DNA of 64,000 nucleotides. Origin: an uncultured bacterium (lineage in GTDB: Bacteria; Fermentibacterota; Fermentibacteria; Fermentibacterales; JCC-6). Position 1 is the first letter of the stretch; each line of letters starts with the position of its first letter. The position numbers and the translations under genes were made by a program. Under the pieces are notes generated by a model. The model was not told the origin of the DNA. It worked only from the letters and a program-made list of their open reading frames with translations, and did no database searches. Location of the stretch: the NCBI GenBank assembly GCA_964624405.1, contig CAZUXA010000008.1, positions 25,078-89,077 of the forward strand, given 5' to 3'. Of the stretch, positions 15,326-63,949 are shown piece after piece.

Positions 15326-15664
15326 AGCCTGGAATGTAACGAAATCCGAAGTGGGGTGTGGAGGGGTTGACGCCGGATCAAAATGGCTAGATTATTCCAT
15401 TGTCATTTTGTCGCAGGCAATTTCATAAGAATACACATTCTCCTCGAGGCAAAAAGCCAAAGTCATAAACCTGTGCTCCGCTATCATTGCGGTAGAATCT
15501 CAACACAATTGTACAGAAGTAACAGACCAAAAAGAAAAGACCCCAAAGATTCAACCGACCCCAGAGACTCCCGGGAATACCGGGATCAGGAAAGGTATTC
15601 GCGGCCCAGGGGCAACTATCCGGCGTTTACCGGCCCCACTTCCAGCGACCTGGAAAACAAAACC
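15326..15664 (+). promoter_or_regulatory. AT-rich promoter plus long rho leader with a C/A-rich, G-poor rut-like tract (about 15515-15585)
   Basis: Local GC drops to about 40%. A tract acagaccaaaaagaaaagaccccaaagattcaaccgaccccagagactccc lies immediately upstream of rho. Confidence 0.45.
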
Positions 15665-16888
15665 ATGGCCGAGCTTCAGGTTCTTGCCAAGGAAAGCGGC
15701 ATAAAGCGGGTATCCGGTGTTCGAAAAGGCGAACTGATTCAGAGCCTGCTCGAGGCATCAGCGGAAAAGAACGGGTTCGATTACGCCCGGGGAGTGCTTG
15801 AGGTACTGGGTGAGGGCTACGGGTTTCTTCGCTCGCCTGAATGCAATTACCTCCCGGGTGTCGAGGATGTTTACGTATCGCCTTCACAGATCAAGAAGTT
15901 CTCGCTTCTCACCGGCGACACCATCACGGGCCAGGCCCGGAAACCCAGAGACGGCGAGAAGTATTTCGCCCTGGTCAGGGTGGAGAACATCAACGGGATC
16001 AATCCTGAGGCCGCGAGAACCCGAAGAAGATTCGATGACCTGACCCCGTTCTACCCCGAAGAGAAATTCTCCCTGGAAACCTCTCCAGATGAGTACTGCG
16101 GGCGAATCATGGACCTTCTGTCCCCGATAGGAAAAGGACAGAGAGCCCTGATAGTGTCGCCTCCCAGGGCGGGAAAAACGATTCTCCTTCAACACATCGC
16201 CAATTCCATCACGGCCAACAGCCCGGAAACCCATCTGATCATCCTGCTCATCGACGAAAGGCCGGAGGAAGTCACGGACATGAAACGGAATGTGAAGGGG
16301 GAGGTTATCAGTTCAACCTTCGACGAGGCGCCCAAGCGCCATGTTCACATCGCCGACCTTGTTCTGGAAAAGGCCAAACGGATGGTGGAGTGCGGCAGGG
16401 ATGTGGTCATTCTTCTGGACAGCATCACCAGGCTGGCCCGGGCCAACAACCAGGTGGTTCCCCACTCAGGCAAAATCCTTTCCGGCGGTGTGGATTCAAA
16501 CGCGCTTCAAAGGCCCAAAAGGTTCTTCGGCGCCGCGCGGAACATAGTTGAAGGCGGCAGCCTCACAATCGTGGGTACCGCCCTGGTTGATACCGGCAGC
16601 CGGATGGACGAGGTCATCTTCGAAGAATTCAAAGGCACCGGAAACTGCGAAATCGTCCTGGACAGGCGGCTGGCGGATCGCAGGATATTCCCCGCCATAG
16701 ATATCACCCGTTCCGGTACACGCAGGGAAGACCTTCTGTTCTCGGAAGACGACCTCAGCCGGGTATGGGTCATCAGAAGAATACTTGTGGAAATGAACCC
16801 GGTGGAAGCCATGGAAACCCTTAAGAAGCAGCTTTCCAAACAAAACTCCAACAAGCGCTTCCTTGACAACCTGGTGGCCACGGAATAG
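15665..16888 (+). CDS. rho: transcription termination factor Rho (start called at ATG 15665). The in-frame TTG 15509 would add a 52-aa R/K/D-rich extension, and the ORF-track ATG 15383 is rejected.
   Basis: An N-terminal helix bundle plus cold-shock domain ([15 protein letters not shown]) is present. The RecA-like core contains Walker A PPRAGKT and the Q and R loops, and the length is about 408 aa. Confidence 0.85.
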
Positions 16889-22527: not shown

Positions 22528-23655
22528 GTGAAAAAACTTTATGCTTTGTTTGTGGTAGCGCTTCTCGCACTGGCCTGCGGCCGTGAAGACGGCCCCGTGC
22601 AGGCGGGAGAGGCCGGCTCACGGGTGCCCCTGCCGGATGTGGATGTATGGCTCTCCATAACCGATTCCATCGGGATAGAGATGGGCGACAGCACCCTGAT
22701 GCTGGGAATGCCCGCGGCGGCTTTCTGGATGCCGGAGAACCGGGTGGTTGTGCTGGACATGCAAAAGTTCCGGGCTTCCATCTTCACGCCGGAGGGGGAG
22801 TTCATTGCCTCTCTGGGCCGGCAGGGAAGCGGCCCCGGAGAGTTTCTGCTGCCGTCGTATCTTTCCGTGACCCCTTCGGGGGGTATAGCGGTCTGCGACG
22901 CCATGGCGGGCCATCTGAGCTTCTTCAGCCCCGACCTGGAGTACACCGGCAGTGTCTCAGGGTTTTTCCCGTCACCGCCGGTTATGACGGTGTTCATCGC
23001 CGACTCGGTGTTCATTGGAATGAAACCCGAGTTCGAACAGAACGAAAACGGCTTGTTCATGGGCTACACCGTCGCCAGATGGAACATCTCGTCCCCGGAA
23101 CCCGAGCAGGTCTTCTACAGCAAGTTGAACCCCTTTGACATATCCGACTTGTCCAACATCAACTTCACCGAGGGCATGGTGCTGTTCGCCGCCACTTCCG
23201 AAGGGGTGGTCTACACCACCGTTCTCTCCACCGAGGCCTACGAGTTCAATGCCATGAACCCGGACGGTTCGGAGCTGTTCTCGGTAACAGAACCCTTCAC
23301 AAGGGTCCGGAAAACCCAGGAGGACATCGACTCGGAAAGGGAGTTCGTCCGGAACCGGATGCGTCAGGGGGGCGCCCCGGAGTTCATGGTGAACTCCTAC
23401 CAGCCTGACCCCTTCCTGTTCGCGATAGGTTCAATGGGTATCGCTCCCGACGGAAACCTCTGGGTAGCCCAGGGAGTCTACGGCTCCCCGGTGTTCAGGG
23501 TGTACAACCCCGCCACGGGAGAATTCCTGTTCACCGCGGCGCTGGAGGTCGGGGATGAAGAGAGGGACATCACCGTCATGATGAACCGGTGGGGATTCAC
23601 CGGCATCGACCAGATGTCCGGAGACTGGCCCAGGGTCTATATCATCGATCGCTGA
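22528..23655 (+). CDS. NHL-repeat / 6-bladed beta-propeller lipoprotein (paralog of 46274..47380)
   Basis: A lipobox LALAC|G and an NHL-like GSGPGEF...GIAVCD repeat are present. It shares clear N-terminal similarity with the second copy (SITDSIGIEMGDS... vs SIIDSVGVELGDS...). Confidence 0.6.
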   Translation: MKKLYALFVVALLALACGREDGPVQAGEAGSRVPLPDVDVWLSITDSIGIEMGDSTLMLGMPAAAFWMPENRVVVLDMQKFRASIFTPEGEFIASLGRQGSGPGEFLLPSYLSVTPSGGIAVCDAMAGHLSFFSPDLEYTGSVSGFFPSPPVMTVFIADSVFIGMKPEFEQNENGLFMGYTVARWNISSPEPEQVFYSKLNPFDISDLSNINFTEGMVLFAATSEGVVYTTVLSTEAYEFNAMNPDGSELFSVTEPFTRVRKTQEDIDSEREFVRNRMRQGGAPEFMVNSYQPDPFLFAIGSMGIAPDGNLWVAQGVYGSPVFRVYNPATGEFLFTAALEVGDEERDITVMMNRWGFTGIDQMSGDWPRVYIIDR

Positions 23656-30374: not shown

Positions 30375-30800
30375 ATGCGGCCCAAAACCCCGGAAGTCAC
30401 CGTTGACGCCATCATAGAGTTTGAAAACCGCCGGATTGTACTGGTTGAAAGGAAGTTTCCGCCGAAGGGCTGGGCTCTGCCAGGGGGATTCGTAGACCCC
30501 GGGGAAAGCCTGTTCCAGGCGGTGAAACGGGAAGCACTTGAGGAAACCGGCCTTTCCATCGAAGTAATGTCGCTTTTCCATGTTTACTCCAGGCCCTGGA
30601 GAGACCCGAGGGGAGACACCATAAGCGCCGTATACCACTGCAGGGCCCGGGGAAAACCCGTGGCCGGAGACGACGCCTCAATCGCCAGGGCGTTCCCCTT
30701 CGACGGTCTGCCCGGGAACATGGCTTTCGACCACCGGGAGATAATCGAAGACTTCCTGCGGTGGAAGAACACCGGAATCAGGCCATCCCTGGAAGCCTAG
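30375..30800 (+). CDS. NUDIX hydrolase (start at ATG 30375 with AGGAGGG RBS)
   Basis: The Nudix box GGFVDPGESLFQAVKREALEETG is present. Confidence 0.85.
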   Translation: MRPKTPEVTVDAIIEFENRRIVLVERKFPPKGWALPGGFVDPGESLFQAVKREALEETGLSIEVMSLFHVYSRPWRDPRGDTISAVYHCRARGKPVAGDDASIARAFPFDGLPGNMAFDHREIIEDFLRWKNTGIRPSLEA

Positions 30801-33016
30801 CGGAGTACCGTGGTTTTTCTCAGGTCGCAACCCCCGGAGCCGGATACCCGCTGAATGTAAACCCCGCAAGGCAGGTCATTGGTGTTCCAACTCGCGGTGT
30901 GCCCGCCGGCGGAGAGTTCTCCACGGTGAAGGACATCAACAATCCTTCCCGCCAGATCAAACACCATCAACTCCACATGGCCCGGCGAGGGAACCGAGAA
31001 CTCAACCTCAACCATTCCTGACACCGGATTGGACAAACCCGGAAGAAAAACGGGAGTACCGTGGACAGCCTCCCCCTCAATCCCGGTGGTGGTCCAGACT
31101 ATCTGGGTTACCGCCGGCTCTGAATAGCCGAACTCATTGCTGTTGGCAACCACCAGCACCGTTGTGACATCCTCCCCCTCCGGCCTGGTCACCAACGGCA
31201 CGAAGCAGGCGTTGCCGGGGGTTGCCCACAAGAATGTGCGGCTTTCATCCGAGTTGAGTGAATACACCATGTAATTGTCGCCGTCCGAGGGATCCCACCT
31301 CAGCCTGAGTGTTCCGTTGAAGTCGTCCACCTGGTTGAACTGCTCTACCACAAGACCGGTGGGAGGCGCTGGAACAACGGGTTCGCCCCGGATCACTCCA
31401 AGCCTTCCGATTCTAATCTGATAGTCTTCGATGACGGTCGGGCTCTGAAAGCGCAGGGCGATTATGGAGAGGGTGTGACCCGCCAGAGCCGAGAGGGGAA
31501 ACTGCCACGTGTTCCATCCCTCCGACACACCGTCGGGTACCTGGAAGAAGAAAAAATCCATGGGATCAGACGTTGTGGAAAGGGCCACTTCCATTCCCGA
31601 TGGCGCTGCGGCCTCTCCGCGGTTCCAGACGATTACGAAACTGTCATCCCCCTGCACTGGAGCGTCGGTCTTGTACAGATAGAGCATTGTGGTGTTTGCC
31701 GGGGACAGCTCACCGCCGACCTTCAGGCAGCTTCCGCCGTGGTAGGGGATTTCCCAGTCCAGTTCCGGATACAGCGGAGTTCCGCCGCTGTTCGAGATGT
31801 ACCTCCAGGTTGGAAGCACATCCATCTGGCTTCGGTTGTGCCAGGGGTTCTGGGAAAGAACCTCACCCTCCACCGCGGTGCGGTAGCCCTGTCCGGTGTT
31901 GAAGCTGGTCACGAAGGGAAACGATGTTACGGGAGTTTTGGCCGGAATGTAGTGGGCAATCCCCTTCCAGGGGTATGTTGTCCCGGTGTTCCCCGGATCC
32001 CGGTTCGGCCCCACCCAGAAGTAACTCTCCCGGGAGTAGAAGGCGGCGTGACTCGAAGCGTTGGAGTAAGTCCAGTTCGGACAGTAGAAGCCAAGGCTTG
32101 CCCTGTGGTCCTGTCCCTCCGGGAAAAGCCCTTCCCAGTTGACTCCGGTGTTGTATCCGTTGGACTGGACGTCAACTCCGGCGTAGAGGTCGTAGGGGCT
32201 CCGCCCCAGAGCAATGGCATGGTTCCCGGAACTGGTGAGCCCCGCTGAACTCCACCAGAAGTTCAGGAACATCTCGTCGCTGACGGTCTGGTCTTCATAC
32301 TGAAAGAACCAGTCATTATTGGCGTTCAGGGCATTCTGCCAGGAGATTGCGCCTGTTTTGGTCATGGCGTCGTACCATTGAATCCGCAGATCCGAGTTCA
32401 GCTGAATGTAGATCATCATGTCCCGCATGTCTTCCGCAAGCTGGGTGTTGCCCCCCGCGGTCTCCTGGTTGATGAACCAGCCGTCGAAGCCATAGTACTC
32501 CGCCACCTCGATGAGCTTGTCCGCCACAGGGAATGTGTCTCCCTCCTTCTGAACGAAATCCCATACCCACTGAATCTGGCCGCCGTACTGAACCGGCGGA
32601 AAGAAAACGGTGCCGTAAACAGGCACGCCGTTCCTGTGAGCGGCATCTGTCACTCCGGGGTTCGGCGCCAGTATCAGCCCCTCCCCGGCGCTTCCCCCCC
32701 AGAAAGTCAGGTGTTCGATGTACTGCCAGTATCCGAAGGCGTAAGTGTCGATTCCAGGGCCGCCCTGGGACGGGTTGAAACTGGTGGACGGGTACATGAT
32801 GCTGATTGATGTCACTCCCGCCTGGCCGGGTATTGCGTGGGCGTTGCACTGGGTGTCACCCAGGCTTCTGGTGGCAAGTGGAATCGCGCTTCGATTGTAG
32901 GGGGCGTCCGGGTCGGTGTTCGGGCTCCAGCTGAGAAGATCGGCGGGGTGCCAGTACGAGGCGTAGGGCTGGCCAGGCAGGAATTGCGCCATCAGAACCG
33001 CGGCAAGAATGATCAT
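30797..33016 (-). CDS. GH85 endo-beta-N-acetylglucosaminidase with a T9SS C-terminal sorting domain
   Basis: The GH85 signatures AAHRNGV and FDGWFINQET (catalytic N/E) are present. A C-terminal Por_Secre_tail-like segment reads NPVSGMVEVEF...VFDLAGRIV...CGVYIQRV. Confidence 0.7.
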   Translation of the reverse strand: MIILAAVLMAQFLPGQPYASYWHPADLLSWSPNTDPDAPYNRSAIPLATRSLGDTQCNAHAIPGQAGVTSISIMYPSTSFNPSQGGPGIDTYAFGYWQYIEHLTFWGGSAGEGLILAPNPGVTDAAHRNGVPVYGTVFFPPVQYGGQIQWVWDFVQKEGDTFPVADKLIEVAEYYGFDGWFINQETAGGNTQLAEDMRDMMIYIQLNSDLRIQWYDAMTKTGAISWQNALNANNDWFFQYEDQTVSDEMFLNFWWSSAGLTSSGNHAIALGRSPYDLYAGVDVQSNGYNTGVNWEGLFPEGQDHRASLGFYCPNWTYSNASSHAAFYSRESYFWVGPNRDPGNTGTTYPWKGIAHYIPAKTPVTSFPFVTSFNTGQGYRTAVEGEVLSQNPWHNRSQMDVLPTWRYISNSGGTPLYPELDWEIPYHGGSCLKVGGELSPANTTMLYLYKTDAPVQGDDSFVIVWNRGEAAAPSGMEVALSTTSDPMDFFFFQVPDGVSEGWNTWQFPLSALAGHTLSIIALRFQSPTVIEDYQIRIGRLGVIRGEPVVPAPPTGLVVEQFNQVDDFNGTLRLRWDPSDGDNYMVYSLNSDESRTFLWATPGNACFVPLVTRPEGEDVTTVLVVANSNEFGYSEPAVTQIVWTTTGIEGEAVHGTPVFLPGLSNPVSGMVEVEFSVPSPGHVELMVFDLAGRIVDVLHRGELSAGGHTASWNTNDLPCGVYIQRVSGSGGCDLRKTTVLR

Positions 33017-46273: not shown

Positions 46274-47380
46274 ATGAACAGGTTGATATTCGTGATAAGC
46301 GGCGTATTACTCATTTCAGGATGCGAAAACGCAGCCATCCCCGCCGAGTCCGGGGTATCTTTATGCACCCTTTCGATTATTGACTCGGTAGGCGTGGAAC
46401 TTGGAGATTCGGCGTACATCTTCGGGGCCATACTGGGTGCGGAGTTCATGCCCTTCGGGGGATTCGCGGTTCTGGACAGGGCGGCGGGCAACATCAGGCT
46501 CTACTCTGACACCGGTTCCCATCAGAGAACAATCAGCCGCGGGGGAAGCGGCCCGGGTGAGATTGTGCAGGCCTACGGCCTTATTGTGTGGCCCAACGGA
46601 GACATGGGCGTCTTCGACCCCTACCAGGGCGGTCTGATGCGGTTCAACCCCGGGGGAGAATACCTGGGGCTTCAGTTTGAAGCGGTCCAGAACATTCCTC
46701 TCGATCCTGTAATGGTGGGAGACTCATCCTATGTAGCGATGAGATCCGCCATCCACCATGAGAACGATCAGGTTTTTGTGGAAAGCTTTCTGGGCAGTTT
46801 TCCAATGACCTGGGAGCCTTCCGTCAAGTACATCTCGGATCTGACCCTGTTTGATCCGAGCGGACTGGGCGACTTTCTGATAAGCACCTTTTTCTATCGG
46901 CCATGGACGGTGGACCGCAGAAGGGGAACGGTGTATGTGGCCCCATACGACCAAGGCAGATACAGCATCATGGTGTTCAACCCTGATGGTAGCTCCGGGG
47001 GTGTTCTCACCCTGCCCACGGTTCCGGTGGAGAAAACCCCGGACGAAATCGCCGGGGAAAGGGAATACATCGCCGCCTTCCTCACCGCCGCCGAGGGAGG
47101 AGACCCGATGTACAATGTATGGTGCGATCCTCTCCCCTTCAAACACCCGGTGGGCTCCATGACCGTGGACGACGCTGGAAACCTCTGGGTGCTCCGGGGT
47201 GATCGGGACGATGTGTTCTTCAATGTCTGGAACGCCTCGGGAGAACATGCCTTCGACTGTGTTCTGCCAGGGGTTCCCGGTGGGGACATTCGATTCAGAG
47301 TGTCTGGTAACCGTATGCTTCTCTACCGGGAAAACCCCCTGGATTATCAGAAGATATACATCATCGCCGTTCCATGGTAG
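46274..47380 (+). CDS. NHL-repeat / 6-bladed beta-propeller lipoprotein (paralog of 22528..23655)
   Basis: A lipobox LLISGC|E and GSGPGEI...GDMGVFD are present. The N-terminal block is conserved with the first copy, and both end in ..YIID/..YIIAVPW. Confidence 0.6.
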   Translation: MNRLIFVISGVLLISGCENAAIPAESGVSLCTLSIIDSVGVELGDSAYIFGAILGAEFMPFGGFAVLDRAAGNIRLYSDTGSHQRTISRGGSGPGEIVQAYGLIVWPNGDMGVFDPYQGGLMRFNPGGEYLGLQFEAVQNIPLDPVMVGDSSYVAMRSAIHHENDQVFVESFLGSFPMTWEPSVKYISDLTLFDPSGLGDFLISTFFYRPWTVDRRRGTVYVAPYDQGRYSIMVFNPDGSSGGVLTLPTVPVEKTPDEIAGEREYIAAFLTAAEGGDPMYNVWCDPLPFKHPVGSMTVDDAGNLWVLRGDRDDVFFNVWNASGEHAFDCVLPGVPGGDIRFRVSGNRMLLYRENPLDYQKIYIIAVPW

Positions 47381-54518: not shown

Positions 54519-56327
54519 ATGAACCTGGAACTGGTTGGAACTTTCGCCGTCCTTGGCATTGCGGTACTGCTCTTTCTCACCGAGCGCCTCCGTCCCGATG
54601 TGGTCTCCCTGTCCACCGTGGCGGCGCTGGCGGCGCTCGGGGTTCTCACCGCCGAGGAGTCCTTCTCGGGGTTCAGCAGCCAGGCCGTTATCACGCTGAT
54701 CTCCGTGTTCATTCTGGCGGAAGGCCTTACGCGAACCGGTGTCTCGGAACAGGTGGCGAAACTGTTGTTGAGATGGGGGGGCAAACGAGAGGGAAGGCTT
54801 GTTGGCCTGGTGATGGCTACGGGATCCGGGCTTTCCCTGTTTCTCAACAACATTGCCGCGGCGGCGGTTCTTCTTCCGGCGGTGGGGGGAGCGGCGAAAA
54901 AGGCGGGCATCTCTCCTTCCAGGGTTCTTATGCCCCTGGCCTTCGCCACCATTCTCGGAGGAATGGCAACCCTTCTCACCACGATGAACATCGTTGTCAG
55001 CAGTGTTCTTGAAGACAGCGGACTTCCGGGGTACGGCCTGCTCGACTTTCTTCCCGTGGGACTGCCAATGCTTCTCGCCGGCATTCTTTACATGATGATA
55101 TGGGGAAGGCGCCGCCTGCCCGCCGATGCCGGTCGGGAGAGTCTTCTCCGGGAAGCACGGGGAGAGGCTGACCTGCTGGACATCTACCGTATGGGAGACT
55201 TTTTCTTCAGGGCCAGAATTCCCGAAGGCTCTTTCCTTATCGGAAACACCCTCGCGCGAAGCACATTCAGGGAGGCTTTCGGGCTCAATGTGGTCGCCAT
55301 CGAGAAGGCCAACGGCCCTGTCGTGGCGCTGCAGCCTGAAACCGTATTCCAGAAGGGGGACATACTGATACTCGAGGGAAGCCAGGACGAGTTCCGCAGA
55401 AGGGACAGGGAGCCCTATCTTGAGATACTGCCCTGCCGCGCCCTGGAAGAAAACAGCATCCTCAATCTTTACGCGGTGTTCGCCGAGGCCATGCTCTCCC
55501 CCCGGTCGAGCCTGATCGGCCGCACCTTGAAAGAGGTTCTGTTCCGGCAGAAGTTCGGCATGTCGGTGCTGGCTATCTGGCGGGAGGGAACCCCGATAAA
55601 AACCGACATCGGAGATGTGAAGCTGGCATTCGGCGATGCCTTGCTGCTCCAGGGCCCCCGGGACAGGCTGAGGATTGTTGATCTTGACCCTGACCTGATA
55701 CTGCTTTCCATGGAGAAGGAGCCGCCGCCGGTGAAGCGGATGGGTCGGGTGGCAATGGTGATTCTTGTGGCCACCCTGGCCGCTGTGATTTTCACCCCGG
55801 TTCCCATGGCGCAACTTCTTCTCAGCGGCGCGGTTCTGATGCTTCTTTCGAAGGCGCTCACCATGGAGCAGGCCTACCGGGCGATTGACTGGAGGGGAAT
55901 CTTTCTGGTGGCGGGAATGCTTCCCCTGGCGCTGGCCATGATCAAGTCCGGCGCCGCTGACATCGTATCCGCTCTCCTGGTCTCAGCCTTCGGCGGGTTC
56001 AGCCCGCTGGTGATGGTTTCGGCACTCTTCATGGCATCGGCGCTGCTGACCCAGGCAGTGAACGGAGCGGCGGTGGCTGCAATGATGGCGCCCATCGCCA
56101 TCTCAGCCGCATCGGGATCAGGAGCGCCGGCGCACGCGCTGGGAATGGCGGTGGCTCTGGGCTCATCCATGGCGTTCCTCACACCCCTTGGCCACCCGGT
56201 CAACACTCTGGTAATGGGTGCCGGCGGCTATCGCTTCCGCGACTATCGCCGGGTGGGATGGCCGCTTTTCATGATTCTCACATTAGTGGCCATCGCGGGT
56301 ATGGCGGTTCGCTGGAAACTTGTCTAA
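54519..56327 (+). CDS. SLC13/DASS-family permease with two central TrkA-C domains
   Basis: Two transporter halves flank the tandem TrkA_C-like cytoplasmic domains, at about 602 aa. Confidence 0.7.
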   Translation: MNLELVGTFAVLGIAVLLFLTERLRPDVVSLSTVAALAALGVLTAEESFSGFSSQAVITLISVFILAEGLTRTGVSEQVAKLLLRWGGKREGRLVGLVMATGSGLSLFLNNIAAAAVLLPAVGGAAKKAGISPSRVLMPLAFATILGGMATLLTTMNIVVSSVLEDSGLPGYGLLDFLPVGLPMLLAGILYMMIWGRRRLPADAGRESLLREARGEADLLDIYRMGDFFFRARIPEGSFLIGNTLARSTFREAFGLNVVAIEKANGPVVALQPETVFQKGDILILEGSQDEFRRRDREPYLEILPCRALEENSILNLYAVFAEAMLSPRSSLIGRTLKEVLFRQKFGMSVLAIWREGTPIKTDIGDVKLAFGDALLLQGPRDRLRIVDLDPDLILLSMEKEPPPVKRMGRVAMVILVATLAAVIFTPVPMAQLLLSGAVLMLLSKALTMEQAYRAIDWRGIFLVAGMLPLALAMIKSGAADIVSALLVSAFGGFSPLVMVSALFMASALLTQAVNGAAVAAMMAPIAISAASGSGAPAHALGMAVALGSSMAFLTPLGHPVNTLVMGAGGYRFRDYRRVGWPLFMILTLVAIAGMAVRWKLV

Positions 56328-56602
56328 CCGTAGTAGCAGATGTAGGACGAAACCTCCAGAGCCCTGGCGGTAAAGGCTGTGTTTTCCGGAACGCTGAAGC
56401 TCTCACCCTTGCAGTAGGTTGTAATGTCATGTCCGGCATACTCCACCTCAATGGCGCCGTGGGTGACTTCCATCAGTTCCTTCAACCCCGTGGAGAACTC
56501 GTAGAATCCGGGCAGGATAACGCCGACGGTGAACCGCTGGCCAAGGGTTTCCGGCCCCAGGCTCTTCACATTGCCGTGGAAATACTCGTTGACCTCAATC
56601 AT
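56324..56602 (-). CDS. ppnP: pyrimidine/purine nucleoside phosphorylase PpnP (DUF1255 cupin), start at MIEVNEYF
   Basis: The N-terminus VNEYFHGNVKS is characteristic, at about 92 aa. Confidence 0.8.
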   Translation of the reverse strand: MIEVNEYFHGNVKSLGPETLGQRFTVGVILPGFYEFSTGLKELMEVTHGAIEVEYAGHDITTYCKGESFSVPENTAFTARALEVSSYICYYG

Positions 56603-56667
56603 CTCGTCTCCTTTCGTTTGAGACTGTATCATATCCCCGCACCTCCACCCGATGCAAAGGAGAAGGT

Positions 56668-57363
56668 ATGGTGGTCAGACAGTTTCGCTACGGAAACGAC
56701 AATCTGGGCTACGTGGTTCACGGGAAGACCGAGGCTCTCGCGATTGACGGCGGCGCCATCGGCCCGGTCACAAGGTATCTGGAAGAGAACGGTCTTGCGC
56801 TGACCATGATCACCAACACCCACTCCCACAGCGACCACACCGTCGGCAACGATGCCCTGATGACCCGGGACACCCGGCTCATCACCCCGGAAGAGGCCGC
56901 CGGCGCCGGTGAAATCATTGTGGAAGGCCACAGCATCCGGGTGATTCCCACACCAGGCCACACCCTGGACAGCGTTTGCTTCCACACTCCGGGATTCCTC
57001 ATGGCGGGGGACACCCTGTTCATTGGCAAGGTGGGCCGCTGCTTCTCCGGCAGAACAGACCTTCTGCTTCGCTCGATCCGAACACTGATGACCCTTCCCG
57101 GAGACACGGTTCTCTACCCGGGCCACGACTATGTGGAGGAGTACCTCGGCTGGTGCAGAACCCTGGAACCCAAGAACCGCCATCTGGACCAGGCCATGCG
57201 CCTTTATGACCGTAGTGATGTGCGCTCCACGCTGGGCAGGGAGAAACTGGTAAACCCCTTCCTGCACATGGACAACGACGATGTGGAGGAAGCCCTGAAA
57301 CGGAGAGGGTTGCCCCGGGAAAGCATCGGGGAGCGATGGAACTCGCTGCTTGGTCTTATGTGA
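56668..57363 (+). CDS. MBL-fold metallo-hydrolase (glyoxalase II-like)
   Basis: The THSHSDH motif and downstream His/Asp ligands are present. Confidence 0.85.
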   Translation: MVVRQFRYGNDNLGYVVHGKTEALAIDGGAIGPVTRYLEENGLALTMITNTHSHSDHTVGNDALMTRDTRLITPEEAAGAGEIIVEGHSIRVIPTPGHTLDSVCFHTPGFLMAGDTLFIGKVGRCFSGRTDLLLRSIRTLMTLPGDTVLYPGHDYVEEYLGWCRTLEPKNRHLDQAMRLYDRSDVRSTLGREKLVNPFLHMDNDDVEEALKRRGLPRESIGERWNSLLGLM

Positions 57364-57774
57364 AAGCTCCTTGGAACATCCGGTTGATGGAGCCTGGTAC
57401 GCCCGTCTTCCGTTCAGTCGAACCTTTTCCGGTGAAACATACGCTCTGATTCTTCCCCGACCCGATGTGATGGTGAAGCCGAAATCACCTCGGGGGCCGT
57501 TGCGTAACCCGCTCATCTTCGCCCGGGAACTCCATGAGGAAATGCTCCGGCATAACCTCAAGAGGGTGCAGATTGGGCAAAGACATGGCGTACCTCGGGC
57601 AGGATCACCCAGTGGCTCTGCCTGCTGAAGCTGCCGGATGAAAAGCAGAGGGAGGTTTAAACCCTGGAGGACCACTGGGACCGAAGGGTGGTGACGGAGC
57701 GGGGGTTGAGGAAGTAGGCCATAAATGCGGAATGATTTGAATAAGGAGAGAGATGTGAGCCATGATGACAGGTA

Positions 57775-57812
57775 TTGACACTCCCCCCCCCCCCCTATTT
57801 ATTCTATTGACC
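57775..57812 (+). promoter_or_regulatory. putative promoter: perfect -35 TTGACA followed by a spacer that is mostly a C13 homopolymer (57783-57795), then an AT-rich -10-like TATTTATTCTA
   Basis: The hexamer and homopolymer are seen directly. They lie about 100 nt upstream of the island operon ATG 57897. Confidence 0.4.
57783..57795. repeat. poly(C)13 homopolymeric tract (candidate slipped-strand phase-variation site)
   Basis: Thirteen consecutive C residues are counted in the sequence. Confidence 0.9.
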
Positions 57813-57896
57813 AGGCATAACAAAAGTGTCTTTTGATAAGGAATCCTATTACATGTTCTCAGTCTCGTGACAGGGCTGTTGAACGCAGGAGGGAAA

Positions 57897-59069
57897 ATGG
57901 TTTTCGTGATCCTTGCTCTGACGGTGCTGATGGTTTCTACTCCATCACCCAGAGAACTATCGGAAAGAACTGAACCCTGGGTACGGGAAGATGTCACAAT
58001 CACCTCGGTATCCGAGTTCCACACCTCCGACTTCCTCCGTGAGGGGGAAAGGGTTCACCTCCTTCACCACGCCTTCCTCGATGACGAGAACGAAACACTC
58101 CGCACCGTTGTCTGCACTGACACGCGGGTGATCGTGCTGGAAGAGGGTTTGGTGCAGAGAGAGATAGTTCTGGAGCACACGATCAATCATGCCAATATAT
58201 CCCCAATGGGAATGTTTCTGGTTTCCCATCGAGACATGGATGCTCCTTCAAGTGCTCGATCCCTTAGGGTTGATACCGAGACGGGGGAACAGATCCATTT
58301 CACCACTCACCCCGGGCGGGAAATGCAGGTCAATGAACCATGGACATGGCCACAGGATGACGGTTCGCTGGTAACTAGACTGGGAAGCTACCTATGGTTT
58401 TTTGATACTGATCTAAACCCTGCGCAAGAACTCCGTGTCTCACCTTGGGGTTCCGATGTATGGGCTGCAAGAAACACAGACATTGTTTTTGTTTCCGGCA
58501 CAACACTGTCGGCTTACAACCGTCGTGGCGAACTTCTATGGACCATCTCCGATGAGTACAATCGGGCCAGGGTCAACAGTGCAGCGATTTCTGATGACGG
58601 CAGCCTCGTGGGGCTAGCATCGCGTGATGGGGCATTCCTTTTTGACGGAACTACAGGAACCGTCGTCGCGGAGTACTTCACAACCGGGAATACTGGCTTT
58701 GGTGTTGGTCAGATCATCTTAAGCCCTTTGGGAAAAAGATTTCTTGTTATACGGTTAGACGATCGAGTTATCGTATCATCGGGTTGTCTGGAAACAGGAG
58801 AGCAATACTCCTTTGCTTTGGGTGCCCGTGTTCGAGCCATACTGGATTGCGGGATCGCGCTTCTGGATTCCATGGTATTGGATTCACACCTCAATCCGTA
58901 CTACGTTCCGGGCAGGCATATCTACGCGATCTCCTCTTCAGGGAGAAGACTTGTCCAGGCTTCCGAGTGGTTCCCGACGCACCCTAACTCTGCCTTCGCT
59001 GCTACTGGTATACAGAGCGTTCTGCCTGCTGGATTCCAGGTTATGGAGCTTCAGGCAGGAGGCAACTGA
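57897..59069 (+). CDS. secreted PQQ/WD-like beta-propeller protein (start ATG 57897, AGGAGGG RBS)
   Basis: A signal peptide is present, with repeated ...GELLWT.../...DGSLVG...DG... blade-like motifs. It is translationally coupled to the next gene by an ATGA-type overlap. Confidence 0.55.
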   Translation: MVFVILALTVLMVSTPSPRELSERTEPWVREDVTITSVSEFHTSDFLREGERVHLLHHAFLDDENETLRTVVCTDTRVIVLEEGLVQREIVLEHTINHANISPMGMFLVSHRDMDAPSSARSLRVDTETGEQIHFTTHPGREMQVNEPWTWPQDDGSLVTRLGSYLWFFDTDLNPAQELRVSPWGSDVWAARNTDIVFVSGTTLSAYNRRGELLWTISDEYNRARVNSAAISDDGSLVGLASRDGAFLFDGTTGTVVAEYFTTGNTGFGVGQIILSPLGKRFLVIRLDDRVIVSSGCLETGEQYSFALGARVRAILDCGIALLDSMVLDSHLNPYYVPGRHIYAISSSGRRLVQASEWFPTHPNSAFAATGIQSVLPAGFQVMELQAGGN

Positions 59070-59071
59070 TC

Positions 59072-61813
59072 ATGAAGAAGACTGCCTTCACTTTCTACTG
59101 CTGCCTGATCGGGATGCTTGGCTCCGGTGCTGCAACAAGTGATCCATTCGACTACAACCCTGGCTTCATCCGATTCCCTTTTGCTCGAAGTGGTTCTGAC
59201 TTCACTAACACCTGCAAGGGATATGGCGACAACAATATGGGTTTTGGTCTGAAGCTCTTCCACGCTGGCGTGGACTTCCAGGCAGAAGACACAACGGAGT
59301 ATGTCAGAACACCTTTCGACCCCGCTTATGTCATTCGTGCAGATTCAGATAGTCTTCAGCTTGACTGGCGTGTTATCTTCGGTCTTTCCGCCAACGCAGA
59401 AACGGGATGGGGATATCACCACCTTTATCGTCCCCAAGGATTTGCTGTAACCGACTCATTTACAGGCCTTGTTTCACCCGTAGTCGTAACGCCGGATCTT
59501 GGTCCTCATGTGCACATTGACTGGTGCATTAACTTGAATAGTATCTATGTGGAGGGTAATCTTATCGTATACGACAGCTACATCAATCCCCTTGACTACT
59601 TTCTGAACAAGCCTTCGAACTATGACCATCCTGAGCTTGGAGAGGTTTCAGGCTCTTCGACCGGGCTACGAATACAGAATACACAGGGCTTTTTGCCGGA
59701 CACAGCTGTTTTCGGCCAGGTTCATTTTGTGGCTCGTCCGGTTTCTGCTCCGGACTATGGTTCAACATCAGATTCCGTCGGAGTCAGATACCTTCGGCAC
59801 AGGGTGCTCAGGCAGGATCCTTACACCGGCGAGTATGCTCCTCTTCCATGGTACGACTGGCGAACACTGTTCAGTATGAACGGGTTCATCCCTTTTCAGG
59901 GTGATGAGTTCTTTGATTTCGTATACGCCACAACTTCAGGCCACTATCACAGCGAATACCTCCTTAACAACTGCGGCACCACCCCAGTTGGTCTGAACGC
60001 TGATTCTGCCTTCAACAATGTCTGGACTGCCGGGTACGATCGCGCGCAGGACTGGGCTGATGGTGTGTTCTGCCGGGGAGCCTTCGATACGAGGCTGGGA
60101 ACTAGTACTTACAACCAGCAGAGCTGCGACAACAGCAACGCCTTGATCCCCGACGGCCGCTACTGCGTTGAGATGGAGGCGTACTCACATGGAAACTCGC
60201 AAGCGCAGACATGGAGGCTCCCTGTGCTTGATGTGGCAGCCGAGAACCTGTCGCCTGGCGACTCGTCAAATGTACGAGGGTTCATCGTGGACAACTTTGC
60301 TCCCCATGTTGCCTCTCTTCTCGTTTACTTGCCTGTGGAACCCGGTTCTCCCGACACTATCTACAACGCTGAGTGGATTCTGTCCCCATCCATGGACCAA
60401 CGACACCTCGCTGGAGGAGATCTTGCGATGTACCTCAGTGAATCCCAAGAGCAATGGGTTGGTGTTGCTGTGCTCTTCTCGGAAACGATGGCTTCTTTGC
60501 CTGACATTTGGATAAGCGGAGAATGGGGAGGTCAGATACGATGGACTTCAGCTAACCTCACCGCGACAGAGTGGGACTATGACAACTTGGGAGAACCTCC
60601 TTCTGCGCCTCCTGGCCATTCCTGGCAGTCTTACAGGACAGATTCCGGAATTACGACCTACCATGGAGCCCTAAGACTGAACATTCAAGGGGGAGCAGAC
60701 CTCTCAGGAAACAGCATTGACGCCAACCCGGCAACAATTGCGGTCCGTGATGCTAACGGCAACTTCTCCGGTTATGAACAAGGCACTGATAACGGATACA
60801 TCTGGGGCACAACCATCCCGATTTGGTCTAAAAATAGCTCAGATCTAACAAAAGTGGAAAGCTACAATACTCGATACGGGTTTCTTGAGGCTACGATCAG
60901 CTATTTCTTCGGTCAGTACAAAATACTCGCTGGGGCTATACCTATCACTCAATACAGCAGTTGCCCCTACTGGCATGGCTTCTGGATGATGAGGAATCAA
61001 AGTTCACAGCCCCCCTCCATGACTTCACCGCGAGTGTGTATAATCGATTTTAATGGAACAGTTGTTCGAACTTTTCTTTTGGGTAATGCGCACACGCTCT
61101 ATCCAGTAAGTATCGATTCTGAGAACTCCTCCCATATTGATGTGCATCTACAGACAGGCAGTGTTGAAGATGGAACTTTCGGCGACTACCTCTGGGTTTC
61201 AATAACAAATTACGAACCAAGTATGGTGTTCTGGGGAGCGTACTATGTAACTTTTCTAAAATGCTTCACCGCACAGGGGTTGACCAGTCATCACCACATA
61301 TCGAAGGGGTTTGCTTACTTTCGTGATTCAAATGAGATCGTGTTCTACGACTCATTACGGTCAGTTTCTACCAATGGAAGCTCTTGTATTTATGACTGGA
61401 TTGAGCAAAACCCCAACGAACCTTACAACATCCATGGAAGCTACAATGGTAGTTACTTCAATTTCAGCCCCCCCGGAATTGGCACCGGAGATACCGATCC
61501 GGTCAGATCAAGCCGTCAAGACTCTGGTATTGCTGATGCTTCGGAAGTTCCTTCTGTTGCCTTCGGTCTTTCGATCAATCGGAATCCAGTCTCTTCGGAG
61601 TTGATGCTCCGGATCAGTCTGGAGCGTTCTGGTCCTGTTGAAGTGTTCATCTATGACATTGCAGGCAGAACAGTGCTGAAGGCTCTCGAGGAGGACTTGT
61701 CCGCAGGAGTACACAGCCTGACTGTGCCGGTTCATCTTCCCGGCGGCATCTACTTCTGCAGGCTCCGTTCCGGGTCCGACATCGCCTCGGAGAAACTGGT
61801 GATCCTTCGATAG
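59072..61813 (+). CDS. large secreted protein with an N-terminal M23 (lysostaphin/LytM-like) peptidase domain, central W/Y/G/N-rich region, and a T9SS C-terminal sorting domain
   Basis: The M23 motifs HAGVDF (H-x-x-x-D, aa about 64) and HVH (aa about 146) are present. Their spacing is lysostaphin-like (..GVDF..TEYVRTPFDPAYVI..GWGYHHLY..GPHVHIDW). The C-terminal segment is NPVSSELMLRISL...VFIYDIAGRTV...GIYFCRL. Confidence 0.6.
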   Translation: MKKTAFTFYCCLIGMLGSGAATSDPFDYNPGFIRFPFARSGSDFTNTCKGYGDNNMGFGLKLFHAGVDFQAEDTTEYVRTPFDPAYVIRADSDSLQLDWRVIFGLSANAETGWGYHHLYRPQGFAVTDSFTGLVSPVVVTPDLGPHVHIDWCINLNSIYVEGNLIVYDSYINPLDYFLNKPSNYDHPELGEVSGSSTGLRIQNTQGFLPDTAVFGQVHFVARPVSAPDYGSTSDSVGVRYLRHRVLRQDPYTGEYAPLPWYDWRTLFSMNGFIPFQGDEFFDFVYATTSGHYHSEYLLNNCGTTPVGLNADSAFNNVWTAGYDRAQDWADGVFCRGAFDTRLGTSTYNQQSCDNSNALIPDGRYCVEMEAYSHGNSQAQTWRLPVLDVAAENLSPGDSSNVRGFIVDNFAPHVASLLVYLPVEPGSPDTIYNAEWILSPSMDQRHLAGGDLAMYLSESQEQWVGVAVLFSETMASLPDIWISGEWGGQIRWTSANLTATEWDYDNLGEPPSAPPGHSWQSYRTDSGITTYHGALRLNIQGGADLSGNSIDANPATIAVRDANGNFSGYEQGTDNGYIWGTTIPIWSKNSSDLTKVESYNTRYGFLEATISYFFGQYKILAGAIPITQYSSCPYWHGFWMMRNQSSQPPSMTSPRVCIIDFNGTVVRTFLLGNAHTLYPVSIDSENSSHIDVHLQTGSVEDGTFGDYLWVSITNYEPSMVFWGAYYVTFLKCFTAQGLTSHHHISKGFAYFRDSNEIVFYDSLRSVSTNGSSCIYDWIEQNPNEPYNIHGSYNGSYFNFSPPGIGTGDTDPVRSSRQDSGIADASEVPSVAFGLSINRNPVSSELMLRISLERSGPVEVFIYDIAGRTVLKALEEDLSAGVHSLTVPVHLPGGIYFCRLRSGSDIASEKLVILR

Positions 61814-61980
61814 GTACTGAAACCCTCCGGCTCCACACCCGAGCGATCGGAGGACATCCGATGACGAATATGTTCTCTGTCAGCCACCGAGATCCCGATG
61901 CGCAGAGTGCAGTCCGTACGAGTGTTGTTGGAACGATGGTGAAGTCGATTCATGGTATGACAGGTGGCTCTTCATCATAT

Positions 61981-61994
61981 GGGGGGTGCCCCCC
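61981..61994. terminator. GGGGGG-tg-CCCCCC hairpin between the island operon end and tRNA-Glu
   Basis: An inverted G6/C6 repeat is present. The loop is short, so function is uncertain. Confidence 0.3.
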
Positions 61995-62016
61995 TTAATG
62001 GTGTTGAGCGTGAAAG

Positions 62017-62092
62017 TGGCGCTCCCAAGGGGACTCGAACCCCTGTTTCCGGCGTGAGAGGCCAGCGTCCTAGGCCACTAGACGATGGGAGC
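62017..62092 (-). tRNA. tRNA-Glu (anticodon CUC), CCA encoded
   Basis: The reverse complement folds as a canonical cloverleaf. The 7-bp acceptor is GCTCCCA/TGGGAGC, the anticodon stem-loop is CUGGC-CUCUCAC-GCCGG, and the T-arm is AGGGG-TTCGAGT-CCCCT. The overall sequence is close to bacterial tRNA-Glu. Confidence 0.85.
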
Positions 62093-62127
62093 GCGGAGCG
62101 GCAATATCGGTTTGGAGCCCTGGTTCG

Positions 62128-63582
62128 TCAACCCCGGCCGTGCTTCTTCTCCAATGCCTTCAGCTTCTTGCCGGACATTCCCCCCAGTGCTTCAATGGCG
62201 GCCATGATTCGCCTTCTCGCGAGGTCGGAACCCAGCAGTTCCATCCCCGCGTAAAGGGGCGGCCCCACCCTGGCACCGGTCATTGCGGTGTAGAACGGGG
62301 CTGTGAAGTCTTTGGTTTTAACGCCGAACTCCCGGGAAAGCTCATCGAAAACGGCTCTTACCGCTTCTTCGGTCCACTCCTTCAACTCCTCCAACCGCCA
62401 GAGGGACACCTGAAGCACTTCCTTCACGCCGTCGTCGTCCATGCCCTTCAGTGTCAGCAATTCCGCAGACGGACCCACGGAATCCGAGAAGAACATGGAG
62501 GACATCCGGCCCCAGTCACCCAGGGTTTCCATCCTGCTTCCCACCACGGCCAGCACTCTTTTCAGATGGCTCCCGTTAAGTTTCCAATCCTCGAGAACAG
62601 GAAGAAGGGTATCCGGCGTGTAGTTTTCCCTTAGGTACCTGGCGTTGAGCCAGCGCAGCTTGTCAAGGTCGAAAACCGGCCCGCCCAGCCTGATGTCCGA
62701 GAGCTGAAAGTGGTGGAGCATCTCCTGGAAGGTGAACTTCTCCGAACCGTCGGGCATGCTCCAGCCCATCATCCCCAGATAATTGACCAGCGCTTCCGGC
62801 AGAAAACCCGCCTGCCGGTAATACTGGATGGAAGTCGGGTTTCTCCTCTTGCTCAGTTTGCTCTTGTCCGGGTTTCTGAGCAGGGGCAGGTGGCAGAACA
62901 CCGGTGGTTCCCACCCGAACATCTCATACAGCAGAACATGCTTCGGCACGGAGTTGATCCACTCCTCCCCCCGGATGATGTGGGTTATCTCCATAAGGTG
63001 GTCGTCCACCACCACCGCCAGGTGGTATGTGGGATAGCCGTCGCTTTTCATTATGACCTGGTCGTCCACGGAGGCCCAGTCTTTTCTTATCTCGCCCCGG
63101 AGCAGATCCTTAAACACGCATTCCCCCTCCAGGGGAGCCTTCATTCTCACCACGAAGGGTTCGCGCCTCATGGTCCGGTCCGCGGCTTCATCGGCGGAAA
63201 GCTGACGGCACAGCCTGTCGTATCCCCGGTTGGAATCACCGCTGGCGGCCTGATCCATCCTCACCGCTTCCAGCCTCTCCCGGGTGCAGAAGCAGGGGTA
63301 GGCGTGGCCTTTTTCGATCAGCTGTTCAACATGCTTCCGGTAGATGTCAAGCCGTTCACTCTGCCTGAACGGACCCTTGTCCCATGTGAGGCCCAGCCAC
63401 TGAAGGCATTCCAGTATGGCTCTTTCATGCACGGGGTCGGATCGCTCCCTGTCGGTATCCTCGATCCGAAGAATGAACTCTCCGCCGTTCTTAACAGCCC
63501 ACAGCTTTCCAAACAGAGCCTGGTAGGCCGTTCCCACATGGGGGTCGCCGGTGGGTGATGGAGCAAGCCTTGTTCTGACCAT
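62128..63582 (-). CDS. gltX: glutamate--tRNA ligase (start at MVRTRLAPSPTG)
   Basis: HIGH (PHVGT) and KMSKS-like (KLSKR) motifs and the GluRS catalytic core are present. Confidence 0.9.
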   Translation of the reverse strand: MVRTRLAPSPTGDPHVGTAYQALFGKLWAVKNGGEFILRIEDTDRERSDPVHERAILECLQWLGLTWDKGPFRQSERLDIYRKHVEQLIEKGHAYPCFCTRERLEAVRMDQAASGDSNRGYDRLCRQLSADEAADRTMRREPFVVRMKAPLEGECVFKDLLRGEIRKDWASVDDQVIMKSDGYPTYHLAVVVDDHLMEITHIIRGEEWINSVPKHVLLYEMFGWEPPVFCHLPLLRNPDKSKLSKRRNPTSIQYYRQAGFLPEALVNYLGMMGWSMPDGSEKFTFQEMLHHFQLSDIRLGGPVFDLDKLRWLNARYLRENYTPDTLLPVLEDWKLNGSHLKRVLAVVGSRMETLGDWGRMSSMFFSDSVGPSAELLTLKGMDDDGVKEVLQVSLWRLEELKEWTEEAVRAVFDELSREFGVKTKDFTAPFYTAMTGARVGPPLYAGMELLGSDLARRRIMAAIEALGGMSGKKLKALEKKHGRG

Positions 63583-63655
63583 GATAAAGTCTCCGCCTTT
63601 CCATGCGAAGAAATATAGCCTTTTCACCCCCGGGTCGGAGCGTGATATTCAGTGG

Positions 63656-63949
63656 ATGCGGCTCAAGGAAGGAGACGGCGTGAAAATCAGGGTCAGAAAA
63701 CCAACACAAGCCGAGCTGGATTCCATGGGAGTCCTGTCATGGCCGATCTGGGAGAAGGAAGTGTCAACCTTCCCCTGGGTTTACGACATGAGCGAAACCT
63801 GCTTCCTTCTCGAGGGAAGGGTTACGGTCACCACCGATGACGGCTTGTCCGTGGCCTTTGGAGAGGGTGACCTGGTTACCTTCCCCGAAGGTTTGAGCTG
63901 CACCTGGAACATTCATTCGCCGGTGCGGAAGCACTACTCGTTCGGCTGA
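63656..63949 (+). CDS. DUF861/cupin_3 family small cupin protein
   Basis: The pattern ...ETCFLLEGRVTVTTDDG...FPEGLSCTWNIHSPVRKHY is cupin_3-like. Confidence 0.65.
   Translation: MRLKEGDGVKIRVRKPTQAELDSMGVLSWPIWEKEVSTFPWVYDMSETCFLLEGRVTVTTDDGLSVAFGEGDLVTFPEGLSCTWNIHSPVRKHYSFG

Follow-up and report, generated by a model that had tools for sequence, protein, structure and literature searches.

Cis-mobilizable elements (CIMEs) of the ICESt1 type in Streptococcus lack genes for an integrase or for transfer; they lie between repeats of a tRNA 3' end and accrete in tandem, with the newer elements next to the tRNA gene (PMC5704250). Of the Dehalococcoides islands specific for ssrA, the tmRNA gene, about half have an integration module, recombinase included, beside the integration site; as a group these islands hold varied cargo, the phylogenies of their cargo and integration modules disagree, and they are a major source of strain-level diversity (PMC3146451). 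Here we describe a 64,000-nucleotide stretch of DNA from an uncultured bacterium of Candidatus Fermentibacteria (contig CAZUXA010000008.1 of assembly GCA_964624405.1, positions 25,078 to 89,077; hereafter the window), in which an islet of low guanine-cytosine (GC) content next to a tRNA-Glu gene carries two genes, p400 and p913, for a predicted beta-propeller protein and a predicted peptidase-like type IX secretion system (T9SS) cargo protein. With a probability of roughly 0.7, the islet was acquired horizontally and represents a cassette specific to Candidatus Fermentibacteria, in a copy that has no integrase, is partly decayed and arrived as a fragment of a cassette array. Because related cassettes stack beside tRNA-Arg, the position of the window copy beside tRNA-Glu looks secondary and is probably not mechanistic.

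Like CIMEs, the Fermentibacteria cassettes are integrase-less, have tRNA-end repeats and lie in tandem at a tRNA gene, with the newer units proximal to the tRNA. Unlike CIMEs, the units measure only ~2–5 kb and each holds a ParB-type helix-turn-helix (HTH) gene and T9SS cargo, no integrase-bearing partner was seen in any array, and the window copy lies away from its target tRNA with a single copy of the repeat core. They resemble the Dehalococcoides ssrA islands in bringing many different cargos to a single small-RNA gene target, and differ from them in carrying a small HTH gene only, in having tRNA-Arg as target and in their secreted-protein cargo. There is also a likeness to integrons, whose arrays consist of small, independently exchangeable cassettes without a recombinase of their own. 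In contrast to integrons, each Fermentibacteria cassette has its own conserved leader and regulator-like gene, and its repeat corresponds to a tRNA 3' end; neither an IntI-type integrase nor attC-type sites were found beside the arrays, although attC folding was not examined. The Fermentibacteria arrays are not integrons. The family of tRNA-Arg cassette arrays appears to be undescribed, as full-text searches returned no description of such arrays, an absence confined to the library covered and no proof of novelty.

Composition and borders of the islet

An earlier note on this DNA had described a low-GC islet at 57700–62016, with GC falling from 62–68% to 48%. The drop is real, but its size was overstated: on recalculation, this span averages 50.9% and the remainder 59.6%, with a window mean of 59.0%. 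It has the lowest GC content of all 4.3-kb segments, ~4 standard deviations under the mean, and its flanks lie at 55–63%, compared with an islet mean of ~51% and 500-nucleotide (nt) minima of 44.6%. Composition also departs from the rest of the window in codon usage and dinucleotide signature, so that all three measures are outliers rather than uniform. GC at third codon positions (GC3) is 0.53 for the p400 and p913 genes, compared with 0.65–0.79 in every other confidently called gene of the window, while GC at second positions (GC2) is an ordinary 0.45, indicating that the low GC of the islet is not an amino-acid effect. The dinucleotide distance delta* is 97.5, ~6 standard deviations away from the other segments of equal size (34.1 ± 10.5, maximum 63). 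The cassette has a GC content of 51–54% in other genomes too, regardless of the GC of the flanking DNA, and within the islet the lowest values fall in the variable region of p913. We rejected the idea that low GC is typical of T9SS cargo genes, since a second such gene in the same window, encoding a GH85 enzyme (30797–33016), has a native GC3 of 0.73.

While the islet itself is borne out, its limits differ from those first given. From homology to relatives (loci denoted by L-numbers), the foreign DNA extends over about 57364–61980, starting directly behind the stop codon of gloB and not at 57700. The features of this region are the following.

57365–57394, plus strand: 30-nt remnant of the right arm of another cassette, the sequence preceding the tRNA-Arg repeat at the array junctions of relatives
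57395–57406, plus strand: att-like core TGGTACGCCCGT, identical to the last 12 nt of tRNA-Arg(ACG) in relatives
57467–57735, plus strand: pseudogene of a small ParB-type HTH protein (~89 amino acids, aa, when intact), between the core and p400
57736–57866, plus strand: conserved non-coding leader, putative promoter region of the operon, 81–85% identical to L005, L006 and L001
57897–59069, plus strand: p400, 390 aa from ATG, or 400 aa from an alternative GTG at 57867
59072–61813, plus strand: p913, 913 aa
61814–61980, no strand: spacer of unassigned origin, from behind the p913 stop codon to the start of the native tRNA flank
61981–62016, minus strand: native downstream flank of tRNA-Glu including the GC hairpin GGGGGGTGCCCCCC, shared with L008
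62017–62092, minus strand: tRNA-Glu(CTC), intact (ARAGORN; Rfam tRNA model, 60 bits), followed by gltX

The identity of TGGTACGCCCGT with the end of tRNA-Arg(ACG) includes the CCA and is read on the opposite strand (L005, L006 and L004, where this gene borders the opposite end of the cassette). DNA homology to L005 and L006 begins exactly at 57395, with 77% identity over 57395–60327 and 85% over the non-coding and small-gene part, 57395–57893. In the loci scanned, the core (at most one mismatch) is confined to the left edges of cassettes (window 57395, L004 4197, L006 1806) and to tRNA-Arg 3' ends (L004 8096, L005 4484, L006 6296). By these matches, the copy at 57395–57406 marks the true left edge of the cassette. 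Together with the arm remnant in front of it, the core aligns with L005 4454–4495 and L006 6266–6307 (window 57365–57406, 83% over 42 nt), and the same arm-core-arm junction occurs in L004, L001 and L105. A metagenome scan for core plus arm recovered three loci only, all from one sample series. We also considered the left junction as the attP site of a circularised p913 cassette, a reading weakened by L105, in which a different cargo gene precedes this arm type.

At the right border, homology to the relative L008 spans window positions 61981–63943. The 36 nt at 61981–62016 are common to L008 and native, and the foreign DNA therefore ends near 61980. The cassette's own right arm, present in relatives, is missing from the window copy, and the spacer at 61814–61980 resembles neither the right arms found in L005, L004 and L001 nor L008. 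Since tRNA-Glu is encoded on the minus strand, its 3' end faces the islet; an Rfam scan matched this tRNA alone. By k-mer and mismatch searches over 56.3–58.1 kb and then over the whole window, we found no copy of the last 14–24 nt of tRNA-Glu (1–4 mismatches allowed) anywhere in the 64 kb, in agreement with the earlier note, which had seen no att-type repeat of this end. The same note had the islet end exactly at the tRNA gene, as in a classic tRNA-Glu insertion, a picture at odds with both the 36 nt of native flank and the missing repeat; instead of tRNA-Glu, the sole att-like scar is of the tRNA-Arg(ACG) type, the home site of the cassette family.

Between the core and p400, a third gene had been overlooked when the islet was said to encode two genes only: two are intact, and the HTH gene is dead. 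Its sequence is ~85% identical at the DNA level to the intact gene at L006 1878–2147 and is interrupted by a 1-nt deletion at ~57590/57591 and an in-frame TAA at 57658–57660, supporting the view that the insertion is old or degraded. The small HTH family comprises 164 clusters at 90% identity, whose members are 59–100% identical and occur in several copies per contig, often on short contigs, as repeats tend to. One L001 copy matches HTH_ParB (PF17762) with E = 4.3e-7, and the L006 reference copy gives a weak, sub-threshold match (E = 0.04).

The leader that follows may act as the promoter region of the p400–p913 operon; a scan for sigma-70 promoters and terminators gave nothing above chance. 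Between TTGACA and TATTTA motifs, the leader contains a poly-C tract (57783–57795), which reads C13 in six assemblies, the window among them, C12 in L091 (the sole difference in 10.3 kb), C9 in L005 and L006 and interrupted in L001–L003. The length difference could represent slipped-strand variation affecting expression, or a homopolymer assembly error.

Outside the islet, the window consists of housekeeping genes, including those for aminoacyl-tRNA synthetases, RecO, Rho, RF-1, IspG, GlnA and HtrA, among others. No integrase or recombinase domain was detected among the window open reading frames scanned (mostly housekeeping genes), as the earlier note had also stated for integrases. Directly upstream of the islet, 56324–57363 holds ppnP (minus strand) and the gene for a gloB-like metallo-beta-lactamase hydrolase, both of native GC and both missing from the syntenic site of L008, so that the region differing from L008 exceeds the low-GC part. 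A second GC dip (~54%) at 15383–16888 corresponds to the rho gene, which has an ~88-aa N-terminal extension before the Rho_N domain.

Cassette arrays at tRNA-Arg in related Candidatus Fermentibacteria

An intact cassette is ~4.6 kb long and begins with a 9–12-nt repeat of the tRNA-Arg(ACG) 3' end, a small ParB-type HTH gene and the conserved leader. Two cassettes lie in tandem in L004, in the order arm, core, cassette 2, arm, core, tRNA-Arg. The same backbone in L005 has the first cassette alone, directly against tRNA-Arg, which is the pattern expected of a new unit integrating site-specifically at the tRNA end. The 12-nt core is present both at the left edge and in tRNA-Arg in L004 and L006. 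Three to four units each are found in L092, L093, L001 and L094, every unit starting with TGGTACGCC; the right arms, of several unrelated types, all adjoin one common core. We located tRNA-Arg(ACG) beside the arrays in L092 (a 2.07-Mb contig) and L093 (the genome of the closest relative); L001 and L094–L097 show the same tandem units, in stretches that contain no tRNA. A backbone of response regulator, histidine kinase and SecDF genes next to the arrays is common to L092, L093, L004 and L005.

The cargo of the arrays in L092 and L093 includes T9SS propeller proteins, a C25 gingipain-like peptidase and DUF7948/SBBP proteins. Phd/PIN toxin-antitoxin pairs also lie within arrays (L001 3195–5319, L093 3511–4205 and L094 9145–9839), and L001 additionally encodes a sigma-70 factor.

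Cassettes are more alike than the chromosomes that carry them. The cassette at L004 8–3111 is 89.6% identical to that at L005 325–3420 over 3.1 kb, while the backbone beyond tRNA-Arg (L004 8086–14110 vs L005 4475–10488) is 71.3% identical over 6 kb. Likewise, one HTH unit shared by L092 and L093 has 95.9% identity, and their backbone 69.7%. Judged by these discordant identities, the cassette has moved horizontally between lineages. In the sample series of the window's species, L094–L097 are identical over 10.69 kb and then diverge just after a small HTH gene, which points to population-level cassette variation, or to a branch of the assembly graph at a repeat.

Origin of the islet beside tRNA-Glu

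Neither L008 nor L013 has the pair of genes at the syntenic site, and homologues occupy other chromosomal sites elsewhere, supporting the foreign origin of the islet that had been proposed. We infer the following mechanism of integration and route into the gloB/tRNA-Glu locus. The cassettes of relatives form head-to-tail stacks against the tRNA-Arg(ACG) 3' end, where new ones turn up between the older ones and the tRNA gene, a trace of repeated site-specific integration (accretion) that a recombinase encoded elsewhere may carry out. A fragment of such an array, extending from the last part of one cassette across the core as far as the p913 stop codon, would have been placed between gloB and tRNA-Glu. 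The 30-nt foreign arm with the core, the loss of the cassette's own right arm and the dead HTH gene suggest that the fragment entered by recombination without an att site, in a region that also holds different T9SS-cargo genes in the closest relative. After entry, the HTH gene would have decayed and the fragment would have become fixed in the species. The present-day arrangement is the same in 24 of the 24 contigs read with an identical gltX, and in all contigs with an identical p400, at 99.9–100% identity; the islet is fixed within the species.

Several observations count against this account. The window contains a single att-like core, at the left edge of the cassette (57395–57406), and no tandem units. 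Similarity of the cassette arm to tRNA-Arg beyond these 12 nt is not significant: by eye, the arm had suggested a degenerate tRNA-Arg 3' half, a candidate that we dropped after a shuffle test placed it at chance (z about −0.5), and for this reason only the 12-nt core is claimed. No recombinase was found in the window, in the arrays or in their flanks, including the complete ~14-kb array of L093. Finally, the arrays themselves could arise by tandem duplication and homologous recombination between repeated HTH genes.

This last point leads to the alternative that survives best, which we consider unlikely while taking it seriously. No site-specific recombinase would be involved: units would have duplicated in tandem at tRNA-Arg, homologous recombination or gene conversion between HTH repeats of ~200–300 bp would have shuffled the cargo, and TGGTACGCC would be a passenger of the first duplication. 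Consistent with this, the HTH region is a dispersed repeat of 75–96% identity that occurs 3–5 times per locus, assemblies of one population diverge right after an HTH gene, and the neighbourhood of the arrays yielded no integrase. Simple duplication and exchange does not readily account for L004 and L005, which differ by a whole cassette placed exactly between arm and tRNA, with the 12-nt core on both sides, nor for the unrelated types of right arm that abut one and the same core.

A classical genomic island at tRNA-Glu, that is, an integrase-bearing element inserted into the tRNA-Glu 3' end that later lost its integrase and distal repeat, is improbable. Its appeal comes from the closeness of the islet to the tRNA-Glu 3' end (36 nt) and from the variability of the site. 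By gltX, the window belongs to Candidatus Fermentibacteria, with L008 (75%) and L009 (74%) as best matches, followed by L010–L014 at 62–65%, two of which are Candidatus Sabulitectum. In L008 the flanks are kept, with TonB receptor-TetR-CitMHS genes to one side and tRNA-Glu-gltX to the other; they enclose a different ~4–5 kb of 51–52% GC with other T9SS-cargo frames on the opposite strand, and there is no ppnP, gloB or homologue of p400 or p913. In L013 (Sabulitectum), a V-ATPase operon directly follows tRNA-Glu, without cargo genes, and in L014 (Sabulitectum) two FG-GAP T9SS cargo genes come after partial tRNA-Glu repeats. These partial direct copies of the tRNA-Glu 3' end, at 4095–4147 and ~4253–4276, lie downstream of an intact tRNA-Glu (3918–3992), and tRNA-Glu may be a genuine integration target in the Sabulitectum lineage of L014. 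Contigs of four further relatives, L009–L012, stop independently 0–350 nt past tRNA-Glu, which suggests strain heterogeneity or repeats at the site. The window copy itself fits poorly with such an island: it has no tRNA-Glu repeat and no integrase or integrase remnant, native flank with its hairpin is kept between the tRNA and the foreign DNA, and its sole att-like sequence belongs to the tRNA-Arg type and is accompanied by part of the arm of another cassette.

The third alternative, an ancestral AT-rich locus of two native, fast-evolving genes whose low GC stems from relaxed selection or amino-acid composition, is still harder to reconcile with the data, and we regard it as very doubtful. It would agree with the invariance of the arrangement in every contig of the species and with the coincidence of the lowest GC with the variable C-terminal region of p913. 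Against it, the same two genes are not found here in all relatives, the earlier note's own test for such a locus, as the site differs in every relative examined: they are missing in L008 and L013, and their homologues lie at tRNA-Arg elsewhere. Furthermore, the deficit concerns GC3, with GC2 normal, the dinucleotide signature stands out, cassette GC stays at 51–54% whatever the flank, and cassette and backbone identities are discordant. A chimera of two organisms made in assembly or binning, conceivable for a metagenome-assembled sequence with an abrupt change of composition, is ruled out by both junctions, which recur at 99.9–100% identity in 24 or more contigs that stem from different samples and different assemblers.

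The p400–p913 pair and its significance

The cargo of the islet consists of p400 and p913, which are encoded on the same strand 2 nt apart; the gap is likewise 2 nt in L004, L005/L006 and L100, and 35 nt in L001–L003. The two genes may be translationally coupled, and the cargo operon is intact. In every locus recovered, the p913 homologue is preceded by a p400 homologue, whereas the neighbouring genes vary. A distant pair on the minus strand of L093 (13173–16324), beside tRNA-Arg(ACG), encodes a 440-aa propeller with an hhalign probability of 95% to p400 and a 609-aa protein with 27% identity to p913. That the pair recurs at such low identity speaks for functional coupling. In L098 (6208–9218), the p400 homologue most distant of all (31% identity) has no p913 homologue after it; it is preceded by a 526-aa protein that matches Peptidase_C13 weakly, and there is a Y1 transposase gene in the vicinity.

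p400 has no Pfam or NCBIfam match. Its AlphaFold2 model is all-beta, with a predicted local distance difference test (pLDDT) score of 80.5 and a predicted template modelling (pTM) score of 0.81. A Foldseek search of this model against the PDB returned WD40-type propellers (E ~1e-12, best template modelling (TM) score 0.58), with a probability of 1.00 to G-beta, ODA16 and bacterial WD40 domains. By its modelled fold, p400 is thus a beta-propeller protein, as had been recognised from the sequence. A short hydrophobic segment at its N-terminus is plausibly a signal peptide or membrane anchor. Two native proteins, paralogous to each other, at 22528–23655 and 46274–47380 match the DUF5128 six-bladed propeller family, the second weakly and below the curated cut-off. 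Kinship of p400 with these native propellers was rejected, since comparison with 22528–23655 gave an hhalign probability of 12.6%, indicating unrelated proteins.

The second protein, p913, is predicted to consist of the following parts.

N-terminus, plus strand: signal peptide, a typical Sec signal read by eye from the sequence MKKTAFTFYCCLIGMLGSGAA
aa ~40–190 (nt ~59189–59641), plus strand: M23-like metallopeptidase domain
Between the M23-like domain and the variable region, plus strand: conserved middle region
aa ~580–830, plus strand: variable region, different between homologues and lowest in GC
aa 838–911 (nt 61583–61804), plus strand: T9SS type A C-terminal sorting domain

The sorting domain scores above the cut-offs of both TIGR04183 (34.8 bits, cut-off 23) and PF18962 (28.4 bits, cut-off 27), and together with the predicted signal peptide it identifies p913 as a T9SS type A cargo protein. 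The cargo assignment of the earlier note thus stands firmly, while its M23 assignment is plausible, being absent from Pfam and NCBIfam results and visible in a deep profile only. Close homologues of p913 are few, and an exhaustive hidden Markov model search gave a family of about 50 clusters at 50% identity. From these we used an alignment, A7, of 27 homologues with 22–67% identity, in which G50, G52, H64, D68, G112, W113, H117, H146, H148 and N172 are invariant or nearly so. Among them, H64, D68, H117, H146 and H148 (invariant or at least 90% conserved) reflect the conservation of the HxxxD and HxH zinc and catalytic motifs, in the order of the M23 family. The A7 profile matches LECT2 (E = 8.5e-5) and the 'Peptidase M23' structure 5kqb (E = 4.7e-3), both over positions 39–151, and, in an approximate comparison, all four motifs align in order with lysostaphin. 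On the basis of these motifs, profile matches and motif order, we assign the N-terminal domain as M23-like with moderate confidence.

Other results pull in the opposite direction. The M23 models of Pfam and NCBIfam match neither p913 nor its N-terminal 272 aa (E <= 10), nor any of the 27 homologues; the hhalign probability to lysostaphin is only 3.7%; and the AlphaFold2 model of p913 is unusable, with a mean pLDDT of 33 and an N-terminal domain below 30. Profiles of 5 and 10 sequences searched against the PDB, and hhalign with a shallow profile, were all empty for M23, and matches to the Tse1 amidase (E ~0.5) were dismissed as noise. The domain resembles M23 peptidases (LytM, lysostaphin and LasA) and LECT2 in the conserved succession of GYG..HxGxDF, W.Y.HL and HxH, in the same order. 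It differs from M23 peptidases in falling below the Pfam and NCBIfam thresholds, in its fusion to ~650 residues and a T9SS sorting domain, in the pairing of its gene with a beta-propeller gene and in that its peptidase activity is predicted only.

M23 enzymes cut peptidoglycan cross-links or similar glycine-rich substrates, and T9SS cargo passes through the periplasm before export. In our proposal, p913 would be a lytic peptidase, exposed at the surface or released, that acts on cell walls or extracellular proteins, with the variable region for targeting, and the p400 propeller would be its periplasmic partner in transit, as inhibitor, immunity factor or chaperone. The lytic activity is a predicted one, and the roles given to the propeller and to the variable region are putative.

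A broader picture is possible, and we offer it tentatively, rating it as doubtful. Candidatus Fermentibacteria would possess an undescribed array system at tRNA-Arg(ACG), in which units of 2–5 kb are serially inserted by a recombinase encoded elsewhere, with the HTH protein as recombination or regulatory factor and polymorphic T9SS-secreted proteins as cargo; the units would be exchanged between lineages and shuffle a surface and lytic repertoire. The islet would then be an escaped cassette with an M23-type lysin and a propeller as its immunity or chaperone partner.

Taken alone, the islet is a modest case of old horizontal acquisition, in which adjacency to a tRNA gene is no evidence that this tRNA served as the integration site. 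The value of the locus is that it exposes the tRNA-Arg cassette-array family and a candidate lysin/partner pair. Fermentibacteria are common in anaerobic digesters. In this uncultured phylum, more than 160 small HTH-headed cassettes appear to be a driver of strain-level variation among secreted and surface proteins, and the cassette family may be a route of T9SS-cargo exchange that needs no integrase of its own. p913 and p400 are candidates for a secreted M23-type lytic enzyme with a dedicated partner, possibly an antibacterial effector/immunity pair.

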